From a phage, in the sequence record PZ543597.1: a DNA stretch of 64,000 nucleotides. One strand, given 5' to 3'. The notes below the pieces were generated by a model. The model saw nothing but the letters and a program-made list of their open reading frames with translations. It searched no databases and was not told the DNA's origin. Below are positions 21,712 through 51,514 of this stretch, in pieces. A program made the translations under genes and the position numbers. Position 1 is the first letter of the stretch, and every line of letters begins with the position of its first letter.

Positions 21712-21784
21712 TGGGAATTAGCCAAGTTGGTAAGGCACTGGATTTTGATTCCAGGATGCAAAGGTTCGAGTCCTTTATTCCCAG
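21712..21784 (+). tRNA. tRNA-Gln: tRNA-Gln (anticodon UUG)
   Basis: Manual cloverleaf: acceptor tgggaat/attccca, anticodon loop ttTTGat, T-loop ttcgagt. Confidence 0.85.
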
Positions 21785-21785
21785 C

Positions 21786-21872
21786 GCGAGAATGGCCAAA
21801 TTGGTAAAGGCACAGCACTTAAAATGCTGCGGAATGATTTCCTTGTGGGTTCGAGTCCCACTTCTCGCACCA
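21786..21872 (+). tRNA. tRNA-Leu: tRNA-Leu (anticodon UAA), class II, CCA encoded
   Basis: Acceptor gcgagaa/ttctcgc, anticodon loop ctTAAaa, long variable arm, 3' CCA. Confidence 0.85.
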
Positions 21873-21877
21873 AATTT

Positions 21878-21951
<74 letters not shown>

Positions 21952-21961
21952 ATTTAATTTA

Positions 21962-22035
21962 CTCCGTGTAGCTCAGTTTGGTAGAGCGTCTGCTTTGGGA
22001 GCAGAATGTCGTAGGTTCAAATCCTGCCACGGAGA
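21962..22035 (+). tRNA. tRNA-Pro: tRNA-Pro (anticodon UGG)
   Basis: Acceptor ctccgtg/cacggag, anticodon stem tctgc/gcaga, loop ttTGGga. Confidence 0.85.
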
Positions 22036-22037
22036 CT

Positions 22038-22127
22038 GGAGGCGTGGCAGAGTGGTTTAATGCACCGGTCTTGAAAATCGGCAGTCGCTCCGGCGACTCA
22101 TAGGTTCAAATCCTATCGCCTCCGCCA
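22038..22127 (+). tRNA. tRNA-Ser: tRNA-Ser (anticodon UGA), class II
   Basis: Acceptor ggaggcg/cgcctcc, anticodon loop ctTGAaa, long variable arm, 3' CCA. Confidence 0.85.
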
Positions 22128-22132
22128 GTTTT

Positions 22133-22208
22133 GCTGATTTAGCTCAGTAGGTAGAGCAACTCACTTGTAATGAGAAGGTCGGCGGTTCGATTCCGTCAAT
22201 CAGCACCA
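22133..22208 (+). tRNA. tRNA-Thr: tRNA-Thr (anticodon UGU)
   Basis: Acceptor gctgatt/aatcagc, anticodon loop ctTGTaa, 3' CCA. Confidence 0.85.
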
Positions 22209-22209
22209 A

Positions 22210-22284
22210 GGCCCTGTAGCTGGAAGGTTCAAGCAAGCGACTCATAATCGCCAGATGGTGGTTCAATTCCACCCAGGGCCACCA
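22210..22284 (+). tRNA. tRNA-Ile: tRNA with anticodon CAU (Ile by analogy with T4, where the wobble C is modified; Met not excluded)
   Basis: Acceptor ggccctg/cagggcc, anticodon loop ctCATaa, 3' CCA. Confidence 0.75.
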
Positions 22285-22293
22285 AATTAATTT

Positions 22294-22380
22294 GGGGAGT
22301 TATCCCGTAGAGGTAGCGGTGTGGACTGTAAATCCATTGTCATTGCGACTCGGGTGGTTCGACTCCACCACTCCCCACCA
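22294..22380 (+). tRNA. tRNA-Tyr: tRNA-Tyr (anticodon GUA), class II; not among the eight T4 tRNAs
   Basis: Acceptor ggggagt/actcccc, anticodon stem gtgga/tccat with loop ctGTAaa, 15-nt variable arm, T-arm ggtgg-ttcgact-ccacc, 3' CCA. Confidence 0.7.
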
Positions 22381-22384
22381 ATTT

Positions 22385-22459
22385 GGATGTGTAGCTCAAT
22401 GGCAGAGCGATCGCCTGTTAAGCGATTGGTTATAGGTTCGAATCCTATCACGTCCGCCA
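22385..22459 (+). tRNA. tRNA-Asn: tRNA-Asn (anticodon GUU); not among the eight T4 tRNAs
   Basis: Acceptor ggatgtg/cacgtcc (one G-U), anticodon stem atcgc/gcgat with loop ctGTTaa, T-loop ttcgaat, 3' CCA. Confidence 0.7.
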
Positions 22460-22573
22460 AATTTGTGACAACTGTCACATTAATATCTACTTGACGCGAT
22501 TATAGGGGTTGAACTGATCACTCTTCTCTTAATTTCGTGTGAAGACATCTTGATTGTTGGAGTAGGTATTAAT

Positions 22574-22649
22574 GTGGCCGTAGTTCAGTTGGTAGAACTC
22601 GAGATTGTGATTCTCGTAGTCATGGGTTCGACTCCCATCGGTCACCCCA
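22574..22649 (+). tRNA. tRNA-His: tRNA-His (anticodon GUG); not among the eight T4 tRNAs
   Basis: Acceptor gtggccg/cggtcac, D-stem gttc/gaac, anticodon stem cgaga/tctcg with loop ttGTGat, T-loop ttcgact, 3' CCA. Confidence 0.7.
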
Positions 22650-22653
22650 ATTA

Positions 22654-22729
22654 CGGGGCATAGCTCAGAAGGAAGAGCAAGGACCTTCTAAGTCCTAGGT
22701 CGTAGGTTCGATCCCTACTGCCTCGACCA
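22654..22729 (+). tRNA. tRNA-Arg: tRNA-Arg (anticodon UCU)
   Basis: Acceptor cggggca/tgcctcg, anticodon stem aggac/gtcct with loop ctTCTaa, T-loop ttcgatc, 3' CCA. Confidence 0.85.
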
Positions 22730-29299: not shown

Positions 29300-29324
29300 A
29301 TTCATCAACTACTTGGAGGAAATT

Positions 29325-29741
29325 ATGACTCGTATCAATTTAACACTTGTTTCTGAACTGACCGACCAACATCTTATGGCTGAGTATCGTGAATTGCCAC
29401 GTGTTTTTGGTATAGTTCGTAAGCATGTGGCAAACGGTAAGCGCGCTAAAGATTTTAAAATATCTTCTAAATTTATTTTAGGTTCTGGTCATGTTACTTT
29501 CTTTTACGATAAGTTAGAATTTTTGCGAAAGCGTCAATCGGACATTATAACGGAATGCTTAAAACGCGGGTTCAGTATAAAAGATACTGAAGTTCCTGAC
29601 ATCAGCGATATTCCAGTAGAATGGAAAAATGATTATAATCCATGCAAATCAGCTATTAAGTTGAGTCAACAACGACTCGATGAAAAAATTTTAATGAAGC
29701 CACACTGGTATAAGTATTACGGCAAAAATATTTACATTTAA
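29325..29741 (+). CDS. denV: endonuclease V (pyrimidine-dimer DNA glycosylase)
   Basis: 138 aa from [12 protein letters not shown]...; matches T4 EndoV as recalled; RBS ggagga. Confidence 0.95.
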
Positions 29742-29886
29742 ATAACATGGGAATAACCTGGACCTCATGATTCTATGAGGGATTCCCGCCAACCTGTAAT
29801 AAGGTCGAGCCCAAGTGCGGTAATGGGTAAATACAGAAATGGACAATTCATGCGCCATGGAATGGCCCAAATTTAGAGAGAATAAA

Positions 29887-30426
29887 ATGAGAACATTTTT
29901 AACTGGTCCTTATCTATCCCTGATGAATGCTTTTACACACCATTCTGATGCTAGAGTAGAAGAAATTTGTAAAAACGAATATATCCCACCATTTGAAGAC
30001 TTACTTAAGCAGTATTGCACACTTCGACTAGACGGTGGACGTCAATCCGGTAAATCAACTGCTGTGACTAACTTTGCTGCTAATTGGCTGTATGACGGTG
30101 GAACAGTTATTGTTCTTTCTAATACTTCAGCTTACGCTAAAATTTCTGCAGGCCACATTAAAAAAGAATTTTCTCGTTATTCTAGTGATGATATTCGATT
30201 CCGCTTATTTACTGATTCTGTCCGTAGTTTTATCGGTAATAAAGGAAGCAAGTTCAGAGGTTTATCTCTTTCGCGAATTTTGTATATAATCGATGAGCCT
30301 GTTAAATCTCCTGATATGGATAAAATTTACGATATTCATATTGAAACTGTGCAACACTGCTGTAATAGTAAATGCTGCATTGGCGGTATTACTCGTCCGC
30401 AGTTTTTCGTAATTGGAATGCAATGA
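29887..30426 (+). CDS. small P-loop NTPase
   Basis: Walker A GGRQSGKST and Walker B-like ILYIIDEP; start set at the ATG after gagaga. Confidence 0.55.
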   Translation: MRTFLTGPYLSLMNAFTHHSDARVEEICKNEYIPPFEDLLKQYCTLRLDGGRQSGKSTAVTNFAANWLYDGGTVIVLSNTSAYAKISAGHIKKEFSRYSSDDIRFRLFTDSVRSFIGNKGSKFRGLSLSRILYIIDEPVKSPDMDKIYDIHIETVQHCCNSKCCIGGITRPQFFVIGMQ

Positions 30427-30752
30427 TGACAGATACGCAACTTTTCGAATATCTTTATTTTTCGCCAAAAACTATTAAAAATAAATTGGTGAATCATTTT
30501 GAAATTTTGGCAAATAACAACGTCTTGAGCGAATTTTATCCCAAGCAATACAAATTACAAAAAGGTGTATTCAAAGGATGCAGAGTTTTGTGCACTGCTC
30601 CTAATGCAAGATTAATGAATAAAATTCCATATTTTACCATGGAATTTATTGATGGACCATTTAAAGGATTAATTACTCAAAGTTTAATGGCATATGATTC
30701 TGAGCCATTTTTAATTAAAGAACAGTCTTGGATAAATTTATTTTCTAATTGA
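30423..30752 (+). CDS. hypothetical protein
   Basis: 109 aa from an ATG overlapping the upstream stop (ATGATGA). Confidence 0.5.
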   Translation: MMTDTQLFEYLYFSPKTIKNKLVNHFEILANNNVLSEFYPKQYKLQKGVFKGCRVLCTAPNARLMNKIPYFTMEFIDGPFKGLITQSLMAYDSEPFLIKEQSWINLFSN

Positions 30753-30758
30753 GGTTAT

Positions 30759-31121
30759 ATGAAAGCATATCAAATTCTTGAAGGCACGCATAAAGGTACT
30801 ATTTATTTTGAAGATGGTATTCAAGCACGAATTATTGTTTCTAAAACCTTTAAAGAGGACTCTTTTGTAGACCCAGAAATTTTCTACGGTTTGCATGCCC
30901 GTGAAATTGAAATTGAACCACAGCCTACAGTTAAAATTGAAGGTGGTCAACACCTGAACGTTAACGTTCTGCGTCGTGAAACTCTGGAAGATGCAGTTAA
31001 GCATCCGGAAAAATATCCGCAGCTGACCATCCGTGTATCCGGTTATGCAGTTCGCTTTAACTCTCTGACTCCGGAACAGCAGCGCGACGTTATCGCTCGT
31101 ACCTTTACTGAGAGCTTGTAA
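30759..31121 (+). CDS. grcA: autonomous glycyl-radical cofactor (GrcA/YfiD-like)
   Basis: C-terminal 60 aa ([60 protein letters not shown]) match E. coli GrcA as recalled, including the RVSGY radical glycine; corresponds to the T4 Y06I family. Confidence 0.9.
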
Positions 31122-31342
31122 TGGCAAAGATAATTATTGAAGGTTCTAAAGATGTGTTAAATGCTTTCGCAGAATGGTTTAGTAATTCAGGCGAACAGCA
31201 ATTTAATGAAGCGTGGAATATGGGTGATATTAGTGGAATTTATCCTACGACAGAAATTTCTGTTCAGGGATATGGCATTCATGAACCTATTCGTTTAGTT
31301 GAATATGATTTGGGAACGGGCGAGGAAGTCAAATATGATTGA
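31121..31342 (+). CDS. hypothetical protein
   Basis: 73-aa ORF, TAATG-coupled to the GrcA-like gene. Confidence 0.5.
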   Translation: MAKIIIEGSKDVLNAFAEWFSNSGEQQFNEAWNMGDISGIYPTTEISVQGYGIHEPIRLVEYDLGTGEEVKYD

Positions 31343-31601
31343 AGATATTAAAGGTTATAAGCCGCACACTGAAGAGAAAATCGATAAAGTGAATGCTATC
31401 AAAGACGCTGAAGTTCGTTTAGGACTTATCTTTGATGCTTTATATGATGAATTCTGGGAAGCACTAGATAATTGTGAAGACTGTGAATTCGCGAAGAATT
31501 ATGCTGAAAGCCTCGATCAGTTAACTATTGCTAAAACGAAACTCAAAGAATCCAGTATGTGGGCTTGTCGTGCAGTGTTCAAACCAGAGGAAAAATACTA
31601 A
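31335..31601 (+). CDS. small acidic protein at the vs.4 position (candidate Acb2-type cyclic-dinucleotide sponge)
   Basis: 88 aa from [24 protein letters not shown]...; second gene upstream of regB. The Acb2 = T4 Vs.4 link is from literature memory, not a search. Confidence 0.5.
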
Positions 31602-31879
31602 TGACTCAATTAAGCGCAGGGTTTGGTTATGAGTATTATACTGCCCCTCGTCGTGTATCTGTTGCTCCTAAGAAAATTCAAAGTCTTGATGATTTCCAGG
31701 AAGTAGTCCGTAACGCTTTCCAGGACTATGCACGCTATCTTAAAGAAGATTCACAGGACTGTCTCGAAGAAGATGAAATTGCTTACTATACGCAGCGTCT
31801 TGAACAGCTCAAAAATCTACATGAGGTTCGTGCCGAAGTTTCAAAGTCTATGAATAAATTGATTAGATTTAAAGAATAA
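31601..31879 (+). CDS. hypothetical protein (vs.3 position)
   Basis: 92 aa from an ATG overlapping the upstream stop. Confidence 0.5.
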
Positions 31880-31882
31880 CTG

Positions 31883-31911
31883 TTTACTTTTCCTCTTGAC
31901 TGTGGTATAAT
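31883..31911 (+). promoter_or_regulatory. T4-type early promoter upstream of regB
   Basis: -35 TTTACT, 17-bp spacer, TG-extended -10 TATAAT. Confidence 0.7.
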
Positions 31912-31938
31912 TTTTCTATCAGTTAAGAGGAGAATAAC

Positions 31939-32400
31939 ATGACTATCAACACAGAAGTTTTTATCCGTCGAAATAAGCTTCGTCGTCACTTTGAGTCGGA
32001 GTTTCGTCAAATTAACAATGAGATTCGTGAGGCATCAAAAGCAGCAGGGGTCTCATCGTTTCATCTAAAATATTCTCAGCATCTTCTTGATCGTGCAATT
32101 CAACGGGAGATTGATGAGACATATGTTTTTGAATTATTCCATAAAATAAAAGACCATGTTTTAGAAGTTAATGAATTCCTGAGTATGCCTCCGCGTCCTG
32201 ACATTGACGAGGATTTTATTGATGGGGTTGAATATCGTCCTGGGCGTTTAGAAATCACCGATGGAAATCTTTGGCTTGGATTTACAGTTTGTAAACCTAA
32301 TGCGAAGTTCAAAGACCCGTCACTTCAGTGCAGGATGGCAATTATCAATAGTCGTCGTTTACCAGGAAAGGCTTCTAAAGCAGTAATTAAAACTCAATGA
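31939..32400 (+). CDS. regB: RegB site-specific endoribonuclease
   Basis: 153-aa ORF MTINTEVFIRRNKLRRHFESEFRQINNEIREASK...; matches T4 RegB as recalled. Confidence 0.95.
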   Translation: MTINTEVFIRRNKLRRHFESEFRQINNEIREASKAAGVSSFHLKYSQHLLDRAIQREIDETYVFELFHKIKDHVLEVNEFLSMPPRPDIDEDFIDGVEYRPGRLEITDGNLWLGFTVCKPNAKFKDPSLQCRMAIINSRRLPGKASKAVIKTQ

Positions 32401-32407
32401 GGTAAGC

Positions 32408-32953
32408 ATGAGAAAAGCACTACTCGCTGGTCTATTGGCCATTTCAATGATGGCACATAGCTCCGAGCATACTTTCAGTAATGTCCAACTCGATAACATG
32501 CGTTACGCGTATCAATTCGGGGAACAATTTTCTAAGGATGGAAAATATAAAACACACAAAAACATCCATAAGAGCGGATTGGGTCATATAATGGCTGCTA
32601 TTTTGTGGCAAGAAAGCTCTGCCGGAGTTAATTTAAAATCTAAACCAAAGCATCATGCCTATGGAATGTTCCAAAATTATTTGCCTACTATGCGAGCGAG
32701 AGTCAAGGAACTTGGTTATAATATGACCGATGCTGAAATAAAAAGAATGTTGAATAAACGGTCCAATTCAGCTTCCTGGGCGTACATTGAACTTTCTTAT
32801 TGGTTAAATATACATAAGGGTGATATAAGAAAAGCAATATCATCTTATAATTCGGGATGGAATGTTAAAGCAGGTTCTAAATATGCTTCTGAAGTCCTAG
32901 AAAAGGCTAATTACCTTAAAAATAATAAACTTTTGGAAATAGTAAATGACTAA
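32408..32953 (+). CDS. secreted/periplasmic hypothetical protein (vs.1 position)
   Basis: 181-aa ORF with an N-terminal signal peptide (MRKALLAGLLAISMMAHS). Confidence 0.55.
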   Translation: MRKALLAGLLAISMMAHSSEHTFSNVQLDNMRYAYQFGEQFSKDGKYKTHKNIHKSGLGHIMAAILWQESSAGVNLKSKPKHHAYGMFQNYLPTMRARVKELGYNMTDAEIKRMLNKRSNSASWAYIELSYWLNIHKGDIRKAISSYNSGWNVKAGSKYASEVLEKANYLKNNKLLEIVND

Positions 32954-48759: not shown

Positions 48760-49233
48760 ATGTTATTGACTGGCAAATTATATAAAGAAGAAAAACAGAA
48801 ATTTTATGATGCGCAAAACGGTAAATGCTTAATTTGCCAACGAGAACTAAATCCTGATGTTCAAGCTAATCATCTTGATCATGACCATGAATTAAATGGA
48901 CCAAAAGCAGGAAAGGTACGTGGATTGCTTTGTAATCTATGCAATGCCGCAGAAGGTCAAATGAAGCATAAATTTAATCGTTCTGGCTTAAAGGGACAAG
49001 GTGTTGATTATCTTGAATGGTTAGAAAATTTACTTACTTATTTAAAATCCGATTACACCCAAAATAATATTCACCCTAACTTTGTTGGAGATAAATCAAA
49101 GGAATTTTCTCGTTTAGGAAAAGAGGAAATGATGGCCGAGATGCTTCAAAGAGGATTTGAATATAATGAATCTGACACTAAAACACAATTAATAGCTTCA
49201 TTTAAGAAGCAGCTTAGAAAGAGTTTAAAATGA
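48760..49233 (+). CDS. 49: endonuclease VII (Holliday-junction resolvase)
   Basis: 157-aa ORF MLLTGKLYKEEKQKFYDAQNGKCLICQREL...; matches T4 gp49 as recalled. Confidence 0.95.
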   Translation: MLLTGKLYKEEKQKFYDAQNGKCLICQRELNPDVQANHLDHDHELNGPKAGKVRGLLCNLCNAAEGQMKHKFNRSGLKGQGVDYLEWLENLLTYLKSDYTQNNIHPNFVGDKSKEFSRLGKEEMMAEMLQRGFEYNESDTKTQLIASFKKQLRKSLK

Positions 49234-51047
49234 CAATTGAAAAAGAAATTGAAGGATTGATTCATAAAACTAATAAAGACCTTTTGAACGAGAATGCTAA
49301 TAAAGATTCTCGTGTTTTTCCAACTCAACGGGACCTTATGGCTGGTATTGTGTCTAAACACATTGCCAAAAATATGGTCCCGTCTTTTATTATGAAAGCG
49401 CATGAAAGCGGAATTATTCATTTTCATGATATTGATTATTCCCCTGCTCTTCCATTTACTAATTGCTGTTTAGTAGATTTAAAAGGAATGCTTGAGAACG
49501 GATTTAAGCTCGGTAATGCACAGATTGAAACTCCTAAATCAATTGGCGTTGCTACTGCAATTATGGCACAAATTACTGCACAGGTTGCTTCTCATCAATA
49601 TGGCGGAACGACTTTTGCGAATGTAGATAAAGTCCTTTCTCCTTATGTTAAACGCACCTACGCAAAACACATTGAGGATGCAGAAAAATGGCAAATCGCT
49701 GATGCATTGAATTATGCCCAATCTAAAACAGAAAAAGACGTATACGATGCATTCCAAGCTTATGAATATGAAGTAAATACTCTCTTTAGTTCAAACGGAC
49801 AAACGCCTTTTGTAACAATTACATTTGGTACGGGAACTGACTGGACTGAACGAATGATTCAGAAAGCAATTCTGAAAAATCGTATTAAAGGTCTCGGTCG
49901 TGATGGGATAACTCCTATTTTCCCTAAGCTTGTTATGTTTGTTGAAGAAGGTGTTAATCTTTATAAAGACGATCCGAACTATGATATTAAGCAGCTTGCT
50001 CTAGAGTGTGCAAGCAAAAGAATGTATCCTGACATCATTTCGGCTAAGAACAATAAAGCTATCACAGGTTCATCTATTCCTGTTTCTCCAATGGGTTGCC
50101 GTAGTTTCTTGGGTGTATGGAAAGATTCGACTGGTAATGAAATTCTTGATGGACGTAATAATCTTGGTGTTGTAACACTGAATCTTCCTCGTATTGCATT
50201 AGATTCTTATATTGGAACACAGTTCAATGAACAGAAATTTGCCGAATTGTTCAATGAACGAATGGATTTATGTTTTGAAGCATTGATGTGTAGAATTAGT
50301 TCCTTAAAAGGAGTTAAAGCTACTGTTGCTCCTATTCTTTATCAAGAAGGTGCATTCGGGGTTCGTCTTAAACCTGATGACGATATAATTGAGTTATTTA
50401 AAAACGGTAGAAGTTCAGTGTCCCTAGGATACATTGGTATTCACGAATTGAATATTCTTGTCGGTCGTGATATTGGACAAGAAATTTTAACTAAAATGAA
50501 TACTCATCTTAAGCAGTGGACTGAAAGAACCGGTTTTGCTTTTAGCTTGTATTCTACTCCTGCGGAAAACCTGTGCTATCGCTTCTGTAAACTTGATACC
50601 GAAAAATATGGAAGTGTAAAAGATGTTACTGATAAAGGCTGGTACACTAATAGTTTCCATGTTTCAGTAGAAGAAAATATTACTCCGTTTGAAAAGATTT
50701 CTCGCGAAGCACCGTATCATTTCATTGCAACAGGTGGTCACATTTCTTATGTTGAACTTCCTGATATGAAAAATAACCTAAAAGGTCTTGAGGCTGTATG
50801 GGATTATGCCGCACAACATTTAGATTATTTTGGTGTTAATATGCCAGTAGATAAATGTTTTACGTGTGGAAGTACCCATGAAATGACTCCTACTGAAAAC
50901 GGATTTGTTTGTTCTATTTGTGGAGAAACTGATCCTAAAAAGATGAACACTATAAGAAGAACTTGTGGTTATTTGGGAAATCCGAACGAACGCGGATTTA
51001 ATCTTGGCAAAAATAAAGAAATCATGCATAGGGTTAAACACCAATGA
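49230..51047 (+). CDS. nrdD: anaerobic ribonucleoside-triphosphate reductase
   Basis: 605-aa uninterrupted ORF with C-terminal zinc ribbon and glycyl-radical motif RRTCGYLG. Confidence 0.95.
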   Translation: MTIEKEIEGLIHKTNKDLLNENANKDSRVFPTQRDLMAGIVSKHIAKNMVPSFIMKAHESGIIHFHDIDYSPALPFTNCCLVDLKGMLENGFKLGNAQIETPKSIGVATAIMAQITAQVASHQYGGTTFANVDKVLSPYVKRTYAKHIEDAEKWQIADALNYAQSKTEKDVYDAFQAYEYEVNTLFSSNGQTPFVTITFGTGTDWTERMIQKAILKNRIKGLGRDGITPIFPKLVMFVEEGVNLYKDDPNYDIKQLALECASKRMYPDIISAKNNKAITGSSIPVSPMGCRSFLGVWKDSTGNEILDGRNNLGVVTLNLPRIALDSYIGTQFNEQKFAELFNERMDLCFEALMCRISSLKGVKATVAPILYQEGAFGVRLKPDDDIIELFKNGRSSVSLGYIGIHELNILVGRDIGQEILTKMNTHLKQWTERTGFAFSLYSTPAENLCYRFCKLDTEKYGSVKDVTDKGWYTNSFHVSVEENITPFEKISREAPYHFIATGGHISYVELPDMKNNLKGLEAVWDYAAQHLDYFGVNMPVDKCFTCGSTHEMTPTENGFVCSICGETDPKKMNTIRRTCGYLGNPNERGFNLGKNKEIMHRVKHQ

Positions 51048-51514
51048 ATTACGATAGATTTTATCCCTGCGATTTTGTAAATGGCCCTGGATGCAGGGTC
51101 GTTCTTTTCGTTACAGGTTGTTTGCATAAATGTGAAGGGTGTTATAATAAATCAACATGGAATGCTAGAAATGGCGTTCCATTCACTGGTGAAACACTAG
51201 AACAATTAATTGAATGTTTGAATAATGATTATATAGAAGGATTAACTATAACTGGAGGAGACCCTCTTTATCCTGATAACCGAGATGATGTTCATTGCAT
51301 TGTTCAAACGGTAAAAAATCTTTATCCGAATAAAAGCATTTGGTTGTGGACAGGATATAAGTTTGAAGATATTAAACAACTAGAAATGCTTAAATATGTT
51401 GATGTTATTATTGATGGGAAGTATGAGAAAAATCTTCCGACCAAAAAGCTGTGGCGAGGTTCAGATAATCAGCGACTTTGGTCAAATACCGATGGGGTGT
51501 GGAAACATGATTAA
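51044..51514 (+). CDS. nrdG: anaerobic RNR activating enzyme (radical SAM)
   Basis: 156 aa with CLHKCEGC radical-SAM cysteine motif; ATGA-coupled to nrdD. Confidence 0.9.
   Translation: MNYDRFYPCDFVNGPGCRVVLFVTGCLHKCEGCYNKSTWNARNGVPFTGETLEQLIECLNNDYIEGLTITGGDPLYPDNRDDVHCIVQTVKNLYPNKSIWLWTGYKFEDIKQLEMLKYVDVIIDGKYEKNLPTKKLWRGSDNQRLWSNTDGVWKHD

Follow-up and report, generated by a model that had tools for sequence, protein, structure and literature searches.

The 64,000-nucleotide stretch of phage DNA analysed here (hereafter the window) belongs to a T4-like phage of the Tequatrovirus type. It carries an ortholog of T4 vs.6 (product Y06I), a GrcA-like gene whose identity, annotation and in vitro function are already known from T4. 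The explanation that best accounts for our results, and that we hold with considerable confidence, is that this gene encodes a spare part for PFL and that its 3′ half has been overwritten from the host gene grcA, in a process that is recurrent and matched to the host of the phage. The parts of the gene are listed in Table 1.

Table 1. The vs.6 ortholog of the window and the segments distinguished within it
Feature	Position	Strand	Description
vs.6 / Y06I ortholog, GrcA-like phage autonomous glycyl radical cofactor	30759..31121	+	120 aa, ATG to TAA
Phage-type 5′ half	30759..30936	+	codons 1-59 and first base of codon 60; GC3 0.20, codon LLR -0.30
Host-derived conversion tract	30937..31111	+	175 nt, 100% identical to a major E. 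coli grcA allele
Patchwork 3′ end	31112..31121	+	end of codon 118 (G of GAG), AGC TTG TAA; contains the right edge

The ORF is preceded by a GAGG ribosome-binding site (30751-30754, 5 nt before the start) and its TAA (31119-31121) shares one nucleotide with the ATG of the small ORF that follows (31121). Scanning 29300-32500 for promoters and terminators gave counts equal to the shuffled expectation. The corresponding gene of Escherichia phage HP3 shares 99.7% nucleotide identity with the window ORF and is annotated 'autonomous glycyl radical cofactor GrcA'. In HP3 the annotated order is endonuclease V, two hypothetical ORFs, grcA, small ORFs, endoribonuclease and valyl-tRNA synthetase modifier, so that the T4 gene order around this locus is also seen among the HP3 neighbours (HP3 annotation, T4 gene names). 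The HP3 record itself (L002, NC_041919), a 168-kb T4-like genome, is labelled 'Rosemountvirus' and looks mislabelled. The first-pass annotation, made from the sequence without database searches, had named Y06I as the T4 counterpart. This was correct: T4 Vs.6 (NC_000866, 63557-63919) and the window protein are identical at 119 of 120 residues, the sole change being R73 here for H73 in T4.

At the protein level, residues 61-120 correspond to residues 68-127 of E. coli GrcA with 60 of 60 identities, in agreement with the near-identity noted in the first-pass annotation for the last ~60 codons. The radical glycine of the RVSGY motif, read from the sequence, is residue 95 (codon 31041-31043). The Pfam family Gly_radical (PF01228) is recognized over residues 61-101 with 66.8 bits, for a cutoff of 22.2. 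When PDB chains were searched with the window protein, the YfiD structure 6OWR was matched at E=9e-42 and residues 697-759 of E. coli PflB (1cm5/1h16) at E=5e-26, which identifies the domain as PFL-type. For the whole protein the best-scoring model is TIGR04365, at 153.3 bits; this is below the NCBIfam equivalog cutoff of 170 because the N-terminal half is divergent. This half is still homologous to GrcA (36% identity over 39 aa, GrcA residues 28-66, E=1e-5) and is kept across T4-like genera and even in T5-like phages, with a common MKAYQ start. The protein is small (~14 kDa) and stands alone, without a fused catalytic barrel, in an ORF bounded by neighbouring genes. Judged by its sequence, it therefore has the architecture by which an autonomous glycyl radical cofactor (GrcA/YfiD; TIGR04365, IPR011140) is defined.

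The nucleotide sequence adds information that the protein does not give. Each of the 5426 complete E. coli genomes searched by blastn gave a match between window positions 30937-31121 and the 3′ end of its grcA gene, at 98.9% in the best case. Pairwise alignment with E. coli grcA gave a perfect run of 175 nt, from 30937 to 31111, which covers GrcA codons 67-125 and includes the RVSGY glycyl-radical domain. Upstream of 30937, identity to grcA falls at once to ~45%. Past the tract, the last three codons contain two synonymous differences only (31112 G/A and 31116 T/C, window/E. coli), and identity is lost past the stop codon. The tract corresponds to a common form of the host gene, since 5156 of the 5432 matching E. 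coli records are at least 99% identical to it. The idea that the 3′ half is host-derived DNA is thus borne out by 175 identities out of 175 and by sharp edges. The limits first given for the host-like stretch, about 30950 to 31115, were slightly off. At megablast sensitivity, the tract is the only match to the E. coli chromosome within the 64 kb. As a separate observation on the same window, positions 21712-22729 hold a cluster of 11 tRNAs (Gln, Leu, Gly, Pro, Ser, Thr, Met-CAT, Tyr, Asn, His and Arg), the Tyr/Asn part of which (22289-22445) is 83-84% identical to tRNA clusters on E. coli plasmids of 93-110 kb.

To which bacterium the tract is closest was read from a panel of grcA genes of 80-81 enterobacterial and related species, Klebsiella pneumoniae not being among them. 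The closest donor in this panel is E. coli (98.4% over 183 nt), followed by another Escherichia species (97.3%) and by Citrobacter (90.7%).

The two halves of the gene also differ in composition. From the 5′ to the 3′ half, GC rises from 0.34 to 0.49 and GC3 from 0.20 to 0.44. We calculated a codon log-likelihood ratio (LLR) in which the host set consisted of 42 annotated E. coli genes and the phage set of the window's own long ORFs. The 5′ half scored -0.30 bits/codon, a value typical of this phage, and the 3′ half +0.32 bits/codon, within the E. coli range. The latter corresponds to z=+4.8, and none of 809 windows of 61 codons taken from the other genes of the stretch reached it. Codon usage is thus not uniform along the gene, and the switch from an AT-rich 5′ half to a host-like 3′ half, already pointed out in the first-pass annotation, is confirmed quantitatively. 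Since the tract has host composition and is present in every E. coli genome, and since the remainder of the phage gene is AT-rich, we conclude that the direction was from host to phage.

An identity of this kind could in principle arise without any recent transfer, if the gene had been acquired long ago and purifying selection and convergent codon choice had kept it close to the host gene. The domain is indeed extremely conserved in protein across phages and bacteria. Conservation of the protein, however, predicts far less than what the nucleotide alignment with E. coli grcA gave. Over 59 codons identical in what they encode, phage and E. coli grcA agree at 175 of 177 nt, whereas the expected identity is 76.9% ± 2.3% with phage codon usage and 79.6% with host usage, and the maximum in 100,000 simulated draws was 86% (153/177) and 89%, respectively. 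Other phage genera with the same protein reach only 70-87% nucleotide identity. In addition, other Enterobacteriaceae do not share this identity, which is particular to the E. coli allele. Codon simulation, donor specificity and the bimodal distribution of phage identities described below together refute an ancient acquisition as the source of the identity, and we attach practically no weight to it. These results point instead to a recent host-to-phage gene conversion of the 3′ half of vs.6.

The edges of the tract were then defined at the nucleotide level. On the left, the edge can be placed between 30936 and 30945, within GAAGGTGG, a sequence common to the host gene and to the unconverted phage genes. 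It is located just 5′ of the GAA GGT GGT codons that open the EGGQHLN motif, where homology between phage and host starts. The right edge falls within the last three codons of vs.6, which read GAG AGC TTG in the window, GAA AGT TTG in T4 and GAA AGC CTG in E. coli. Mosigvirus phages carry GAG AGT CTA, which is also the state of other T4-like genera (phage-type); in Tequatrovirus, host-type and phage-type synonymous states are mixed in a lineage-dependent manner. Between these edges, the tract spans almost exactly the structured domain of the protein (GrcA codons 67-125, compared to structured residues 61-127 of YfiD). The gene as a whole is thus a mosaic, an old AT-rich phage gene with an overwritten 3′ half, and not a wholesale recent capture. 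A short palindrome, AGGTGGTCAACACCT (5-bp stem, 30941-30955), is located at the left edge and is shared with E. coli grcA; on the minus strand it was among the candidates of the terminator scan, the count of which did not exceed chance.

We examined how widely the tract is distributed among phages. Identities of phage database records to the tract are clearly bimodal: 644 records are at least 95% identical (253 of them at least 99%), 3 lie at 90-95% and 862 at 87.5% or below. The upper class is made up of Tequatrovirus/Mosigvirus-type records. Slopekvirus, Pseudotevenvirus, Krischvirus and other T4-like genera, T5-like phages and Aeromonas phages encode a near-identical C-terminal domain and have no host-identical tract. 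Their identity to any sampled bacterial grcA is 70-87% at the nucleotide level, and their codon usage is phage-like or intermediate. They represent the unconverted state, or one that diverged long ago. The E. coli-identical tract is also present, at 99.4%, in two records named for other hosts (hits H80 and H81), Serratia phage PhiZZ30 and Pseudomonas phage vB_PSGBLB0006; irrespective of the isolation strain, these phages may recently have evolved on E. coli or Shigella.

This distribution also bears on a technical explanation, in which host reads would have contaminated the assembly of the phage, giving a chimeric consensus. Such an error would leave a host-identical tract, and it is possible for a single metagenomic contig (L189, see below). 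It is refuted for the window by the recurrence of the same junctions in 644 independent phage records, the T4 reference among them. Neither the reading frame nor the overlap with the following gene is disrupted, and many phages have private synonymous changes inside the tract. The chance that the tract is an assembly artefact is therefore negligible.

Comparison between phages gave an indication of the age of the tract. In a sliding-window comparison of our phage with Mosigvirus-type phages, identity was 50-90% in the flanks and 97-100% in the tract. Fixed differences between Tequatrovirus and Mosigvirus number 12 in the 5′ 177 nt and 0 in the 175-nt tract (Fisher p=4e-4); with third positions alone, the counts are 7/59 and 0/58 (p=0.013). 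This pattern indicates a more recent origin for the tract than for the phage lineages in which it is found. The Tequatrovirus-Mosigvirus comparison is the only significant contrast of this type between flank and tract. The tract of phage Killian, with 9 differences, was considered as a possible second age and rejected, 5/177 against 9/175 not being significantly incongruent.

Tequatrovirus and Mosigvirus could have obtained their tracts in two independent host events, or in one event followed by phage-to-phage spread, and the data cannot separate the two. In the most restrictive version of the latter, a single conversion took place in one T-even lineage and then spread across both genera, with no ongoing exchange with the host. 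This would fit with the left boundary, which is the same in all E. coli-type tracts, and with the star-like pattern of private changes relative to the E. coli allele (0-9 per phage tract, synonymous); T-even phages are, moreover, known to recombine freely on co-infection. Against it, the states of the right edge differ, GAG AGT CTA in Mosigvirus compared to AGC and/or a final G in Tequatrovirus, and tracts with 0 differences are found in backbones that differ by 11%. Furthermore, two of the three private tract variants of one phage (L095) are two natural polymorphisms of E. coli grcA, which is suggestive of repeated conversion, although not conclusive. Finally, Jiaodavirus phages need a separate Klebsiella donor in any case (see below). 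We consider a single event without further host exchange to be unlikely, though it deserves to be kept in mind, and favour recurrent conversion from the host.

The Jiaodavirus phages of Klebsiella provided a second case. Their vs.6 genes show the same codon jump (GC3 from 0.24 to 0.54-0.61) and no match to E. coli. In the grcA panel, their best donor was at 89%, a value that reflects the composition of that panel, without Klebsiella pneumoniae, and that was corrected by a metagenome scan in which a 29-mer of the Jiaodavirus phage phiA85, taken within its tract, served as query. The scan retrieved ~38 bacterial contigs and one Jiaodavirus-like phage contig of 165.7 kb (L189, OIWQ01000019.1). 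The commonest GrcA protein of the bacterial contigs, encoded by the L181-type allele that we took as reference, is identical to GRCA_KLEP7, the GrcA sequence of the Klebsiella pneumoniae complex. In the vs.6 gene of L189, the 5′ half is identical to that of phiA85 and is accompanied by a 158-nt perfect run with the Klebsiella allele encoding GRCA_KLEP7, L189 being a metagenome assembly in which collapsed near-identical variants could mix host and phage. Among isolates, 115 Klebsiella phage records are at least 95% identical to the Klebsiella tract (99.4% for KPV15, 98.1-98.7% for many, 100% for none), and phage identities to this tract are likewise bimodal. On the left, the Klebsiella-type tracts have the same boundary as those of E. 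coli phages; on the right they end 25 nt before the stop, compared to 9 nt in E. coli phages.

As a negative control, the grcA tract of Salmonella enterica was used against the phage database: no phage reached 95%, the best among the matches listed being at 88%. E. coli phages thus carry an E. coli tract and Jiaodavirus phages a Klebsiella-type tract, from which at least two independent conversions are indicated, each from the host genus of the phage. A further sequence, the 19-kb IMG/VR contig L123, has a grcA-like 3′ segment of 183 nt with 91.3% nucleotide identity to Yersinia artesiana grcA (protein 98% identical). It may represent a third tract matched to its host, or else a piece of bacterial DNA.

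A well-constrained mechanism can be proposed for these conversions. Homologous (or homeologous) recombination with the chromosomal grcA of E. coli would have overwritten the 3′ half of an old AT-rich phage gene. Extreme conservation of the protein keeps phage and host DNA ~80% identical, with perfect matches of at least 20 nt, and such similarity should suffice for occasional recombination between phage DNA and fragments of the host chromosome during infection. Further conversions would then become much easier because the converted tract, now host sequence, is identical to its donor. The conversion may be neutral rather than adaptive, since it leaves the protein almost unchanged: in the unconverted genera the domains are already 97-100% identical in protein. 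A stronger version, in which the 3′ half of vs.6 is re-copied from host grcA whenever a T-even lineage adopts a host species and repeatedly afterwards by ongoing recombination, is a credible possibility that we advance only tentatively. If this lock-step were true, the tract would be a natural recorder of the recent host species of a phage, and it would reveal a measurable level of recombination from chromosome to virulent phage despite destruction of host DNA and modified cytosine.

What the protein does can be approached through its relatives. T4 Y06I and YfiD were reported to accept the radical from PFL activase and to restore oxygen-cleaved PFL (Wagner et al. 2001, as related in PMC8683613). 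The structured part of YfiD comprises residues 61-127, which adopt the fold of PFL 693-759, and the disordered residues 1-60 aid binding and activation. From the near-identity of the two phage proteins, we infer that the window protein likewise functions as a PFL spare part. During infection at low oxygen, host PflA would install a glycyl radical on Gly95. The radical-bearing protein would then plug into host PFL molecules that have lost their own C-terminal radical domain through cleavage by oxygen, and production of acetyl-CoA and formate would be restored at a time when the host can make no new PFL or GrcA. In this manner, the phage copy would keep host PFL running once host gene expression has stopped. 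To our knowledge, no in vivo phenotype of vs.6 has been described.

The first-pass annotation had presumed a different partner, namely that the protein is a spare part for phage NrdD, activated by phage NrdG. Both enzymes are encoded in the window within 49230-51514 (NrdD 49230-51047, NrdG 51044-51514). Synteny in distant phages is in its favour: the order nrdG-vs.6-nrdC-nrdH is found in Aeromonas phage Ah1 (L013, 297-680), and vs.6 adjoins nrdC in Krischvirus PTE-Eco09 (L180, 17-433). A role in nucleotide metabolism was suggested by Nolan et al. 2006 (speculation in PMC1524935), and PMC8683613 considers spare parts for other glycyl radical enzymes conceivable. The protein itself argues otherwise. 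BLASTP of the vs.6 product against the window's NrdD gave E=6.3, without alignment of the radical glycine, and no NrdD chain was present among the 33 hits obtained in a search of all PDB chains. The radical loops also differ, RRTCGYLG in NrdD compared to IRVSGYAV in vs.6. By contrast, the domain is fully identical to that of GrcA and matches PflB 697-759 with the E-value given above, and it is the host PFL system that the conversion tract follows, rather than phage NrdD. With, in addition, the rescue of PFL by T4 Y06I as related in PMC8683613, we find service to NrdD very improbable and retain PFL as the partner.

Two observations on the nrd genes can be added. The vs.6-nrdG/nrdC order of distant T4-like phages represents an old synteny that was lost in T4-type genomes. 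The window nrdD is a single uninterrupted ORF of 605 aa, directly preceded by an ORF of 157 aa (48760-49233) and followed by nrdG; T4 nrdD, unlike this one, carries an intron.

The host-identical tract is visible to anyone running blastn on T4. Our full-text literature search found no paper on the nucleotide identity of vs.6 and grcA or on gene conversion between them, prior notice in older T4 papers being possible, and none describing recurrent host-matched conversion. The result shows that DNA is exchanged between a virulent T-even phage and a chromosome that is being destroyed, and that this exchange is precise over one protein domain. The vs.6/grcA pair would thus be a clean natural system for measuring recombination from host to lytic phage, and the tract could serve to tag the host species of T4-like phages from metagenomes. 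There is also a practical consequence. The gene grcA has been chosen as a qPCR marker for Straboviridae (PMC12845203); since the 3′ half of this marker is identical to E. coli chromosomal sequence, primers placed there could amplify the host.

Among known systems, the closest is T4 Vs.6. Its locus is the same, flanked by vs.7 and vs.5, with denV upstream and regB downstream, and it has the same E. coli-identical tract. It differs by His73, where the window protein has Arg73 as in E. coli GrcA, and by its last codons (GAA AGT TTG compared to GAG AGC TTG). E. coli GrcA/YfiD (6OWR) shares the C-terminal 60 residues, the 175 nt, the RVSGY glycine and the PFL-type domain. In contrast, identity between the N-terminal halves is only 36% over 39 aa, and the phage protein is shorter by 7 residues; E. 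coli grcA lies between ung and eamB, whereas the phage copy is expressed from phage signals. The C-terminal domain of PflB (697-759) is the same domain, and the part that a spare part replaces, but it is embedded in a 759-residue enzyme and its DNA is only ~80% identical to the tract. The vs.6 homologs of other T4-like, T5-like and Aeromonas phages have the same architecture and domain, without the host-identical tract.

A more distant parallel is offered by cyanophage psbA, a host-derived metabolic gene of T4-like phages that is a mosaic of host and phage sequence generated by intragenic recombination. Both cases involve patches of host-type sequence or composition recombined into a host-derived metabolic gene. 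The vs.6 patch differs in that it is confined precisely to a domain, shows 100% identity and, in two phage genera, corresponds to the genus of the host, and its carriers are enterobacterial T-even phages, which degrade host DNA and have modified cytosine.
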